Below the pieces are notes generated by a model, which searched no databases, had not been told where the DNA came from, and saw nothing but the letters and a program-made list of their open reading frames with translations. A DNA stretch of 39,768 nt from a virus. The stretch spans positions 1 to 39,768 of the IMG/VR virus record IMGVR_UViG_3300011270_000004, one strand, 5' to 3'. Both the position numbers and the translations under genes were made by a program. This document shows, piece after piece, positions 15,377 to 17,785 of the stretch; the stretch's first letter is position 1; every line of letters starts with the position of its first letter.

Positions 15377-16063
15377 TTACACCACCAAATTTGTTAGACG
15401 TGTTGCAACTGAAATTCTAATAGCTGTATCTTGCGTAATCGCTTGCGCTTGCGCAAATTTAACAGCTAAAGTGGCATTTTGAGCCAACATTCCAGAATAA
15501 TAAGGATCACGATAAATCAGATTCATGGAATATCCATCCTGATTTATGTGAGTAACCGCTTGTTTACCAAGAACTGGACTATAATAAAGGTCATTGCCTT
15601 TGGGAGATATTCCGCGAGCAACTGCCGATTCTGAACTTGTCAAAATACGGATGTTAAATACAGCACCATATTCAGATGGTAATGCAGAGGCATTTGTTGG
15701 GTAATTCCATTGATTTAGGAAATTACCTGTAGAAGTCCCCGATAGATTATCAAAATCGCTTTGTAACTCAGTTGACGTTAGCATAAAATAGGCTGAACGT
15801 ACTGGGCCTGTACCGAAGCGATCCATACCTTCAATACCTGACATAAATTTATAGGCATTGTTAGTATCAAGTGTCGTGGCTAAAAGCGAAAAATCACTTG
15901 CAGCATAATTAGTAGGATTATCACCATTTGAACCTCCTCCGGCAAATATTTCGGAAGCGGCTGAAATCATGTAATCGCGAAGGATCAAATCCTCAGCCTG
16001 TCTCATTGCCACAGCTAAACGCTCTGACACCCAGGCTAAAACACCTTCTTGATCTTGTAGAAT
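15377..16063 (-). CDS. Major capsid protein, exon 2 (228 codons plus stop).
   Basis: Track ORF 15377..16066 'starts' at a TTG that has no SD and lies 4 codons after an in-frame TAA. The sequence ILQDQEGVLAWVSERLAVAMRQAEDLILRDY...GPVRSAYFMLTS... is the central and C-terminal part of an HK97-fold MCP and lacks an N-terminal region. Confidence 0.75.
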   Translation of the reverse strand: MLQDQEGVLAWVSERLAVAMRQAEDLILRDYMISAASEIFAGGGSNGDNPTNYAASDFSLLATTLDTNNAYKFMSGIEGMDRFGTGPVRSAYFMLTSTELQSDFDNLSGTSTGNFLNQWNYPTNASALPSEYGAVFNIRILTSSESAVARGISPKGNDLYYSPVLGKQAVTHINQDGYSMNLIYRDPYYSGMLAQNATLAVKFAQAQAITQDTAIRISVATRLTNLVV

Positions 16064-16532
16064 CAATCTGTTACTTTATGACCAGTCGGTTACATTTTGT
16101 AACTAACTGGCGGGCCAAATCTTCTCAGCTAGCCTCACTATGTCTCCATAGTGTTCAGAGCACCGCATCATGGAAATCGATTCTTTATTGGCCAACCTTC
16201 ATCGGGTAAATGAGATGGTCCATCATTTTTCTCCACGTCTTCTCGCTTGCTGCGTTCAGGCTGATCACATCGGAAAATAGGACAAGGTAAATAAGACCAA
16301 TAATCTATTCTCTTATAACATTCTTGATCCATTTTCATTATTCCACTAAATTCCGAAGGACATATAGAGCAAAAAACTCCTCGATCTGATTTATTAAGTA
16401 TTCCATATCTGCCTTTCCAAATAATTAATACATCCAAATCGTTTGGGATTTCAATTTGTTCTCTATCTATCCATATCATAATCTTGCCCCTTGTTGTCCG
16501 TCTACATATTATGCAGCGAGGAGTTCCAAGTC
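16064..16532 (-). mobile_element. Intervening element B: 469-nt group-I-like intron candidate carrying a 103-aa ORF.
   Basis: In minus sense it begins GACUUGGAACUCCUCGCUGC directly after ...CUGAUU and ends ...AAGUAACAGAUUG. It shares the 5' block (66 nt identical to 17221..17286) and structured 3' core motifs with element A. Confidence 0.6.
16168..16479 (-). CDS. Intron-B ORF, DUF551-like small protein.
   Basis: Track ORF, 103 aa, with SD AAGGGG upstream. MIWIDREQIEIPNDLDVLIIW...IDYWSYLPCP resembles the phage DUF551 pattern and the genomic paralogues at 17832..18056 and 20244..20468. Confidence 0.55.
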   Translation of the reverse strand: MIWIDREQIEIPNDLDVLIIWKGRYGILNKSDRGVFCSICPSEFSGIMKMDQECYKRIDYWSYLPCPIFRCDQPERSKREDVEKNDGPSHLPDEGWPIKNRFP

Positions 16533-16592
16533 AATCAGAGAAGATTTATACAGGTCAATCTATTTAACCTGTTCATTTATTATACAACCAGT
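16533..16592 (-). other. 60-nt pseudo-exon between elements A and B.
   Basis: Its last 15 nt, aaatcttctctgatt, are identical to the last 15 nt of MCP exon 1. Read in the exon-1 phase it gives TGCIINEQVK followed by TAG. Confidence 0.6.
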
Positions 16593-16662
16593 CAATCTGT
16601 TACTTATAGACCATTTTCGTGACTTAACGAAAATGGCGGATAGGTCTTCTCAGCCTATCTCT

Positions 16663-16974
16663 CTATGTTTCCATAGAGTTCAGAGCACCGCATTCGCAAT
16701 TTATATCTTTGTAATTTACACAACAAATATCACATAATTTACGATCTTCTCGCTTGCTACGTTCAGGCTGATCTAAGAACTCGCCTTTTAATTCAGCTAT
16801 AAAGAAATCATTAATAAATTCTAAAATTAAACAATATTCTGTCGAATCGGGCCAATAGCCTTCTTTTAGAAATTTAATCATTTCTTGTCTTATTTCTTGC
16901 CCCTTGTTGTCCGTCAACATGTTTATATAATTCATAGATTCCTTTTCAAAATCTGAAATATTAATTTCAATCAT
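16663..16974 (-). CDS. Intron-A ORF 2 (103 aa), function unknown.
   Basis: Track ORF. The C-terminal 35 aa, QPERSKREDRKLCDICCVNYKDINCECGALNSMET, are identical to those of ORF 17016..17219 because both read through the duplicated RNA-core block. Confidence 0.45.
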   Translation of the reverse strand: MIEINISDFEKESMNYINMLTDNKGQEIRQEMIKFLKEGYWPDSTEYCLILEFINDFFIAELKGEFLDQPERSKREDRKLCDICCVNYKDINCECGALNSMET

Positions 16975-17015
16975 GCAGCGAGGAGTTCCAAGTCAAGCGG
17001 ATAGGTCTTCTCAAC

Positions 17016-17219
17016 CTATGTTTCCATAGAGTTCAGAGCACCGCATTCGCAATTTATATCTTTGTAATTTACACAACAAATATCACATAATTTACGATCT
17101 TCTCGCTTGCTACGTTCAGGCTGATATGGAAGATGAACAAAAACTATCATTTCATGAATACATTTATATGTATCTTCGTGTTTATAGACTTTTTCATGTT
17201 CTGTACAATTACATTTCAT
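17016..17219 (-). CDS. Intron-A ORF 1 (67 aa), function unknown.
   Basis: Track ORF with SD AAGGGG upstream of the ATG. Its C-terminus is shared with 16663..16974. Confidence 0.4.
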   Translation of the reverse strand: MKCNCTEHEKVYKHEDTYKCIHEMIVFVHLPYQPERSKREDRKLCDICCVNYKDINCECGALNSMET

Positions 17220-17271
17220 ATCTTGCCCCTTGTTGTCCGTCTACATATTATGCAGCGAGGAGTTCCAAGTC

Positions 17272-17568
17272 AATCAGAGAAGATTTTACTTCGGCACACA
17301 TTCTACCGAAGAATGCCATTTGAGCATCAATGATGTCTCTTTGAGGCACTTGGGCAGGCGGATCAATACCACTGTTACCCAATTGTATAGTAGGAGGTGT
17401 CAATGCCCTTGGTCTCATGAAGCGGCAAGTAGTACCGCCATTGGCCGGCATTGAAACCTTATCACATACAATGATATTATTCATTGTGGGGGTTGGTACA
17501 TATAACATTGCTGGTGCAAGTGACTGCAATATTAGAGGTCCGAGATTCCCCGAGGTCGTAATCGACAT
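17272..17568 (-). CDS. Major capsid protein, exon 1 (99 codons).
   Basis: This is the N-terminal part of track ORF 17248..17568: ...PANGGTTCRFMRPRALTPPTIQLGNSGIDPPAQVPQRDIIDAQMAFFG..., typical of an HK97-type MCP N-terminal region. The exon length of 297 nt is in phase with exon 2 starting at 16063. Confidence 0.75.
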
Positions 17569-17785
17569 AAAACCATCCTGGTTTCGTGTGAAAACTATGA
17601 CATGATGATCAGTTGACGAGCTTCCTTACGTCGTTCTCGATCATATCTTGATAAACATACATTACTTATAAAATAGAAATAAGCAAAGTACACTTATCGG
17701 ATTAGAGTTTGCGAACACTCAATTACGCGACATCATTTAACGCATGAATACGTTTGCACAATACGCTTGTGCTTGCGTATTCTGA

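Follow-up and report, generated by a model that had tools for sequence, protein, structure and literature searches.

Two probable group I introns flanking a 27-nt mini-exon in the N4-gp56-type major capsid gene of a phage sequence from IMG/VR

Group I introns of tailed phages have been described in the td, nrdB and sunY genes of T4, in orf142 of Twort and in the gene for the DNA polymerase of SPO1, and are represented in Rfam by RF00028. The present analysis concerns a viral DNA of 39,768 nucleotides (nt), positions 1 to 39,768 of IMG/VR record IMGVR_UViG_3300011270_000004, which is referred to as the window. Positions 17304..16064 on its minus strand most probably represent two group I introns in an N4-gp56-type major capsid gene, separated by an exon of 27 nt. 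With the tailed-phage introns, these elements and their relatives share the U·G pair of the splice-site helix P1, a P3/P7 pseudoknot, P4 to P6, P8, a joining segment J8/7 of 6 nt, a GNRA loop on P9, and a terminal G. They differ from them in that P2 and P7.1/P7.2 are absent from the deduced fold, in an additional bulged base inside P7 in the window's subfamily, and in the nature of their open reading frames (ORFs), which are not homing endonucleases and which run through P6', P7, P3' and P8.

Introns of group I type are also known from virion genes, namely those of the Cluster J mycobacteriophages LittleE and BAKA and of the lactococcal phage Tuc2009, with splicing confirmed by reverse transcription PCR; the introns of LittleE and Tuc2009 lie in capsid genes, and that of BAKA is 265 nt long and lacks an endonuclease gene (PMC3706429). 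As with the present introns, the genes concerned are highly expressed virion genes, a U ends exon 1, and a G ends the intron (PMC3706429). Each of these genes contains a single intron, whereas two are found in the capsid gene of the window and up to five in its relatives. A further likeness is to compact bacterial introns such as the tRNA introns of Azoarcus and Anabaena (subgroup IC3), with which the compact, ORF-less copies of the present family may be compared. In these copies, P9 bears a GNRA loop, for which a C-G-rich P5 is a possible receptor. While the IC3 tRNA introns have a P2 and reside in anticodon loops, the present family occurs in protein-coding genes, carries both P9.1 and P9.2, and usually contains an ORF.

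Exon boundaries and P1

When viewed by a gene caller, the capsid gene appears only as fragments, with minus-strand ORFs at 17568..17248 and 16066..15377 (106 and 229 amino acids) flanking a set of repeats. Once its exons are joined, the gene yields one contiguous match to TIGR04387 (N4-gp56 major capsid) over profile positions 33–320. Exon 1 (17568..17305; all features of the window given here lie on the minus strand) encodes capsid residues 1–88 and ends ..MAFFG with the final U of a GGU codon. It is followed by intron 1 (17304..16593), a composite group I intron of 712 nt, and by the mini-exon (16592..16566), which reads ACU GGU UGU AUA AUA AAU GAA CAG GUU and encodes TGCIINEQV. Intron 2 (16565..16064), a complete group I intron of 502 nt, separates the mini-exon from exon 3 (16063..15377), which encodes residues 98–325 and starts ILQDQEG. 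Both introns end in G (omegaG, at 16593 and 16064), and both upstream exons end in U. An earlier note on this DNA had spoken of elements A and B in three copies; these are not equivalent repeats but belong to two introns split by the 27-nt exon, and the first intron is composite.

The exon boundaries are demonstrated by comparison with homologues and alleles that lack the introns. A search with the joined protein returned 1015 capsid homologues, the majority of which are uninterrupted, 322–325 amino acids long, and 83–90% identical to the query. With the mini-exon included, the product has 325 amino acids and aligns end to end with ten uninterrupted homologues at 83–90% identity, and all ten read MAFFGTGC(I/V)INEQVILQDQEG, with MAFFGTGC(I/V)INEQV across the two junctions. 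Only one of the ten differs from the window within the mini-exon, by a single conservative change of I to V; the rest have the same nine residues. At the DNA level, the uninterrupted alleles L133 and L134 tile base for base on exon 1, the mini-exon and exon 3, with 0 bases gained or lost, and removal of the introns restores MAFFG|TGCIINEQV|ILQDQ. The assignment of exon 1 draws additionally on its translation, and that of intron 2 on the covariance model described below.

The positions of the 5′ splice sites follow a simple rule. In 119 of 121 distinct upstream regions of the family, a P1 of 6–9 bp closed by U·G is found 0–4 nt before a conserved AAAUC, compared with 21 in shuffles. Both 5′ splice sites of the window come after a U that is paired to G within a P1 of 7 bp. 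In intron 1 (P1 at 17289..17311), the exon sequence CUUCGGU (17311..17305) pairs with the guide GCCGAAG (17295..17289), and in intron 2 (P1 at 16550..16572), ACAGGUU, the last 7 nt of the mini-exon (16572..16566), pairs with the guide GACCUGU (16556..16550), with the U·G pair at the splice site in each case. An initial guess that had placed the splice sites after GAAGU and before UUGAUU was superseded by this rule, together with the homologue alignment.

Core helices and the 3′ domain

Relatives of the introns were collected by using two conserved blocks as exact patterns on a viral contig collection, and 132 loci were obtained. Five blocks recur in constant order in these elements, which range from ~200 to 700 nt and many of which occupy other positions of the capsid gene. 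Removal of the element restores a conserved protein in L004, L012, L083 and L005. When 0.9 Mb of related contigs were scanned with a covariance model of the 3′ domain, 213 copies were identified, and single loci had as many as six. Pairing was examined in three sets: 36 compact 3′ domains aligned with MAFFT, an alignment of 146 distinct copies to the covariance model, and 125 elements trimmed to the core, with loop interiors cut out and pairs counted by script.

The earlier note had drawn attention to three hairpins of the 3′ domain, each said to keep its pairing while its sequence changes between copies. Their coordinates and sequences are all exact on the minus strand, and a comparison with the P7–P9 topology of group I introns, which the note had suggested, identifies helices 1 to 3 as P9, P9.1 and P9.2. 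P9 (helix 1) is CACUAUG-GAGA-CAUAGUG in intron 2 (16136..16153) and CUCUAUG-GAAA-CAUAGAG in intron 1 (16661..16678); of the 146 aligned copies, 116 have a GNRA tetraloop here. P9.1 (helix 2) is GGCUA/UGGCC in intron 2 (16113..16134) and GAUAGG/CCUAUC, with the loop CUGAGAAGA, in intron 1 (16639..16659). P9.2 (helix 3) occupies 16082..16110 in intron 2 and forms a 10-bp stem at 16611..16636 in intron 1. Minimum free energy (MFE) folds of both window copies on the minus-sense RNA recover all three helices (z = −3.3 and −4.7).

When more homologues are considered, the paired positions of these helices change together, as the note had predicted. In the alignment of 36 sequences, P7, P8 and the three hairpins are 98.3% paired, compared with 74% in shuffled alignments and 33–44% when partners are slid, and both sides have changed in 20 of 24 pairs; the observed values were reached by 0 of 500 shuffles. 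In the 146-copy alignment, 98.9% of cells are paired, and doubly changed cells number 900 where 228 would be expected.

Covariation likewise demonstrates every helix of the core. The six helices P3 to P8 are 96–100% paired in the 125 trimmed elements, with both partners changed in 22 of 27 pairs; as many doubly changed cells as were observed occurred in 0 of 300 shuffles. P3 (UCUUCUC/GAGAAGA) is paired in 97.9% of cells, and all seven of its pairs have changed on both sides. P4 (CUUG/CAAG, with the variants CUUA/UAAG and CAUG/CAUG), P5 (3 bp) and P6 (GGGC/GCCU) are each 100% paired, with two of four, three of three and three of four pairs doubly changed, respectively. The corresponding values are 99.2% and three of five pairs for P7 (G[N]AGCA/UGCUC), and 96% and four of four pairs for P8, the sequence of which is variable. 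As deduced from these alignments, the arrangement of P3 to P8 is the group I topology, in which a P3/P7 pseudoknot encloses P4-P5-P6 and P8.

P7 varies between copies, reading the classical GACUA/UAGUC in a sister subfamily (B) and GAGUA/UACUC, GACUU/AAGUC or GACUG/CAGUC in others, yet its 5′-terminal pair is G-C in 145 of 145 copies, and the unpaired C in front of that pair is likewise invariant. The G-C pair is the putative guanosine-binding site. Between the 5′ strand of P7 and the 3′ strand of P3, J7/3 consists of 3 nt only (AGC, AAC or AGU). Introns of subgroup IA2, which is typical of T4 and Twort, carry the hairpins P7.1/P7.2 between P7 and P3'; with so short a J7/3 and no P7.1/P7.2, the present family does not belong to IA2. 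Subfamily B also carries AACGACUA…AUAGUCUG, which we take to be the classical R/S element pair as in td.

Intron 2 illustrates the complete layout. The 5′ strand of its P3, UCUUCUC, lies at 16544..16538, and the 5′ part of the core (16486..16544) comprises J3/4 (UGAUUGA), P4 (CUUG/CAAG), J4/5 (GAAC), J5/4 (CAA), P5 (UCC/GGA) and the 5′ strand of P6 (GGGC), with a P5a hairpin at 16516..16502. A second block (16238..16263) contains the 3′ strand of P6 (GCCU), J6/7 (GAAC), the 5′ strand of P7 with its bulge (G[C]AGCA), J7/3 (AGC) and the 3′ strand of P3 (GAGAAGA). J8/7 (AUGCGG), the 3′ strand of P7 (UGCUC) and J7/9 (UGAAC) are located at 16153..16168, and the conserved 3′ tail AAGUAACAGAUUG, which ends in omegaG, at 16064..16076. 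In the MFE fold, the UG that follows P7 pairs with the CA(GA) of this tail, and the bases involved are invariant; in this model, the tail CA and the UG can form a candidate P9.0-like pairing.

Several other pairings were tried and rejected. A helix between CUUGG of block S1 and CAAG of block S3 fails in subfamily B, where the S3 partner is unconserved; the real partner is the CAAG of block S2, which gives P4. If P3 is drawn as GGGGCA/UGCUCU, copies with GCGC or UACUC are uncompensated in that register. The motifs GCGG and CCGC were also considered as P7. GCGG, however, is the J8/7 strand, and the true P7 is formed by G[N]AGCA, upstream of P8, and UGCUC, just past GCGG. The earlier note had drawn GCGG…CCGC as a bracket around P9 and P9.1, and both motifs are indeed present in both copies, but their status as a helix fails. 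Three of the four pairs are invariant, hence uninformative, and pairing is lost at the fourth in 20 of 36 sequences; the 3′ partner of this fourth pair covaries inside P9.1 instead, and P9.2 starts with the C that follows. GCG and CGC, which are invariant, may take part in a tertiary contact.

Within the loop of P9.1, CUGAGAAGAUUU (16117–16135) is complementary to AAAUCUUCUC, which comprises the 5′ strand of P3 and its flank (16529–16547 and 17268–17286). A pairing of the loop sequence CUGAGAAGAUU with the P3 5′ strand (inverted repeats I1/I2) was rejected as part of the conserved fold, since it shows no covariation in relatives and is broken in L104 and L061. The complementarity could represent an alternative or regulatory pairing. 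Conserved motifs in the P9.1 loops of other copies differ and include UAAGUAGAGAAAG, AUCCGAAGAGGUU and AGUGCAAUAGGCU.

In the proposed mechanism, splicing would begin with the pairing of the last bases of the upstream exon to the internal guide, which would form P1 and place the U·G wobble at the cleavage site. The core, composed of P3–P8 pseudoknotted with P7 plus P4–P6, would bind guanosine in P7, at the invariant G-C pair, and this guanosine would attack the 5′ splice site. The terminal G of the intron would then take the place of the guanosine in the same pocket, and the exons would be ligated. By analogy with other group I introns, docking of the P9 GNRA loop on the C-G-rich P5 may occur as well, with the P9/P9.1/P9.2 domain serving to stabilise the core.

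The composite intron, the intron ORFs and the strand

Intron 1 possesses one P1 and one 5′ strand of P3, followed by two bodies, U1 and U2. Its sole P3 5′ strand, UCUUCUC (17277..17283), can pair with GAGAAGA at 17104..17098 or at 16751..16745, and the active core could be either U1 or U2. U1, the first body (16997..17273), runs from J3/4 through P4–P6, an ORF of 67 amino acids, P7, P3', P8 and J8/7 to a damaged P9/P9.1, where an 8-nt deletion (AGAGAUAG) lies between AUAG repeats, and it ends in CCGC. U2, the second body (16593..16996), starts with UUGACUUGG (J3/4-P4) and contains a complete P4–P9.2 region plus the tail to omegaG, with no P1 or P3 5′ strand of its own. The three copies of the window score 93, 87 and 51 bits with the covariance model, the lowest score being that of U1. 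U1 is, moreover, a patchwork: 100% identity is shared with intron 2 (16481–16547) over 67 nt at the 5′ end and with U2 (16663–16772) over 110 nt at the 3′ end, and the ORFs between the identical stretches differ.

Several observations weigh against the interpretation of 17304..16064 as two group I introns. Splicing and catalysis are deduced from sequence. Rfam gave no intron match in the window at the gathering threshold, nor in 15900..17700 at E ≤ 10, where the only matches were chance ones to snR5 and AfaR, and subfamily-B relatives match RF00028 at 27–35 bits (E = 1.5e-5 to 5e-3), below its gathering score of 50. No recognisable homing endonuclease of the LAGLIDADG, GIY-YIG, HNH or His-Cys box type is encoded by the intron ORFs of the window, which leaves mobility unexplained. 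In intron 1, a single P3 5′ strand serves two bodies, one of which has a damaged P9/P9.1, and U2 is the only body without P1 and P3 among 185 J3/4-P4 anchors. The composite junction CCGC|UUGACUUGG (CCGC|TTGACTTGG) had 0 matches in viral_contigs and metagenome_contigs. Intron 1 may be impaired or mis-assembled. With respect to Rfam, P3, P4, P7 and P8 of RF00028 align with subfamily B in the deduced register, and the last hairpin of the model falls on helix 1; the extra bulge in P7 probably costs the window's subfamily this match. Reaching the gathering score is a criterion set by the database and does not define the ribozyme.

One explanation of these features retains the group I introns and holds that intron 1 as written is not one functional unit. 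The U1+U2 tandem would be an artefact of metagenome assembly, a chimera of intron variants from strains that co-occur, or the result of a recent rearrangement, in the last case with a defective, non-splicing capsid gene left behind. The lack of any match to the junction and the status of U2 as the sole body without P1 and P3 are in line with this, as are the fall of the U1 score with its 8-nt deletion and the perfect identity of U1 to intron 2 at one end and to U2 at the other, the pattern expected of a chimera. We nonetheless consider it unlikely. From P1 and the 5′ strand of P3 through one complete body to the tail and omegaG, intron 1 contains in cis everything that a single active fold requires, and its exon junctions are still exact. 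In addition, exact repeats of 67 and 110 nt would seem, from the way assemblers operate, too short to be a likely cause of a tandem mis-join.

The three intron ORFs of the window (16168–16479, 16663–16974 and 17016–17219) have no match in Pfam, NCBIfam or PHROGs. The ORF of intron 2 (16168..16479; 103 amino acids) starts in the loop of P6, 3 nt past GGGGCAAG, reads P6', P7 and P3' as QPERSKRED, and stops at a UGA just before J8/7. Homologous ORFs cross P6'-J6/7-P7-P3' in the same frame, as QPERSKRED or, in the sister subfamily, as QPERL.E, and end in P8, J8/7 or P9. Their start lies 3 nt past GGGGCAAG in 91 of 122 homologous copies, beside a Shine-Dalgarno-like AAGGGG that is the P6 5′ strand, and at least 20 codons precede the core in 114 of the 122 ORF-bearing copies. 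The N-terminal parts are mutually unrelated and include DUF551-like, zinc-ribbon-like and other sequences. For instance, two relatives match DUF551, one of them above the Pfam cut-off, while a weak match to LAGLIDADG (E = 0.0028) was obtained for L103, a large relative.

Reading through the catalytic core from a start so often fixed next to the P6 5′ strand, these ORFs invite the suggestion that a group I fold is spliced with the help of a protein, which could be a host factor or, as a maturase, the small ORF product. The absence of a recognisable endonuclease, the lack of P2 and the shortness of P4 would fit such dependence. On the other hand, compact ORF-less copies of ~200–330 nt, with a P6 loop of 6–13 nt, keep all helices, and the ORF is thus dispensable for the fold; the unrelated N-terminal parts also argue against a common maturase. 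Protein-dependent splicing is regarded as very unlikely.

The earlier note read the hairpins as structured RNA of the minus strand, under selection for pairing. Plus-strand folds are nearly as stable (z = −2.1 and −4.9), so thermodynamics alone does not assign the strand. Rather, the minus strand is fixed by several kinds of evidence taken together, and these support the note's reading: approximately 120 G·U wobble cells occur in the helices of the 146-copy alignment, and would give A·C mismatches on the other strand; GNRA loops occur on the minus strand only; the elements sit within a minus-strand capsid gene; and the splice-site rules apply in that orientation. The notion that the near-palindromic, multi-copy hairpins, which fold on the plus strand too, act instead as DNA (transposon ends, recombination sites or repeats resembling repetitive extragenic palindromes), with the insertion staying in the RNA, has next to no probability given these wobble pairs and loops, the covariation of the long-range, pseudoknotted P3 and P7, the precise in-frame insertion positions, always after a U pairing with the guide G, and the essential capsid gene that would otherwise be destroyed in many contigs.

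Relatives, guide sequences and core-less insertions

Judged by the deduced fold, the introns of the window belong to an undescribed but structurally ordinary, very prolific group I family. In 50,697 phage records, blastn searches with the region and with the 3′ domain detected no DNA similar to the window's introns. The 3′ domain of subfamily B is present in the cultured Desulfovibrio phage 7757, where it is unannotated (PV062637.1 / OR395405.1, 81312-81408; 79% identity over 95 nt), and in an uncultured 36.6-kb phage (MW202674.1, 16942-16996), where it lies under a "hypothetical protein". The capsid protein similarly has no relative by tblastn among the 50,697 deposited phage records, while more than 1000 homologues exist in metagenomes, and the related viral contigs are ~36–42 kb long. 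The phage of the window (39.8 kb), which also has genes for a portal protein, the large subunit of terminase and RusA, looks like a member of an abundant uncultured clade. A split terminase gene that had been suspected in the window was dropped, as the large terminase subunit is complete.

The intron load of this clade is considerable. Related capsid genes are split into up to six exons by up to five introns (L003, L097, L059, L073, L054, L016 and L026), and at least 15 distinct insertion sites are known within one capsid gene of 322 amino acids. The 27-nt mini-exon of the window (residues 89–97) is shared by L003 and L103.

The guides of the window's introns recall introns at other sites. P1 of intron 1 and its loop are nearly identical to those of introns in L003 and L007 that are located at DRFG|TGPVRS. 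This site is uninterrupted in the window and shares the sequence UUCGGU|AC with the intron 1 site. Intron 2 has a guide similar to that of the intron found in L012 at MRQA|EDLIL, a site likewise uninterrupted in the window. At the end of the mini-exon (16566-16574), the window reads GAA CAG GTT where L133 and L134 read GAG CAA GTG; the changes are synonymous, and through them the exon gains its 7-bp pairing (P1) with the intron 2 guide. They could mark a tract of co-conversion, or the exon may have adapted to the intron. The pattern of guides and sites is consistent with spread wherever a site matches a short guide, or with co-conversion of flanks, and proves neither.

Smaller insertions of 32–68 nt, which lack the P3–P9 core, interrupt the capsid frame in relatives: L003 9200-9257, L097 2836-2882 and, on the minus strand, L083 ~2167-2125, L076 ~3425-3394, L059 ~8928-8885 and L103 ~4439-4372. 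None was seen in the window. Each is preceded by a U that is paired to an internal guide beginning with G (for example, UUUUUUGGU/GCCAAAAAA) and ends, after a short tail, in G, and excision of the insertions restores the reading frame and conserved residues. Those of L003 and L103 have the tail GUUGAUGAU, which forms pairs with the downstream exon AUCAUCAAC as well. Translational bypass was considered for these insertions and rejected, since the take-off and landing codons do not match. Full-length introns of the family are found near the core-less insertions in the same gene, and the latter may be spliced in trans.

It is possible, if doubtful, that the family is very invasive without an endonuclease and can enter at any match of 6–9 bases to its guide, that its cores act in trans, and that intron 1 is a snapshot of recombination among co-resident copies. 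Under such a scheme, guide-matched spread (by reverse splicing, for instance), combined with a guide that is readily changed, would account for the many insertion sites of a single capsid gene. The cores would also act in trans on mini-introns of 32–68 nt that comprise P1 and a short tail with G as the last base, much as autonomous transposons serve non-autonomous ones.

Standard RNA annotation misses these introns, and an essential capsid gene is called as fragments as a result. The covariance model allows correct annotation of the capsid and other genes in this uncultured clade, the genomes of which are ~40 kb. The family also provides a dense natural data set for the structure and evolution of group I introns, with hundreds of covarying copies at several sites per gene, guides that change with the site, and ORFs threaded through the catalytic core. 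What is unusual surrounds an ordinary fold, namely the intron load of the clade, the core-crossing ORFs, the composite intron and the core-less insertions. The core-less insertions, if they are truly spliced, would represent a new kind of dependent intron.

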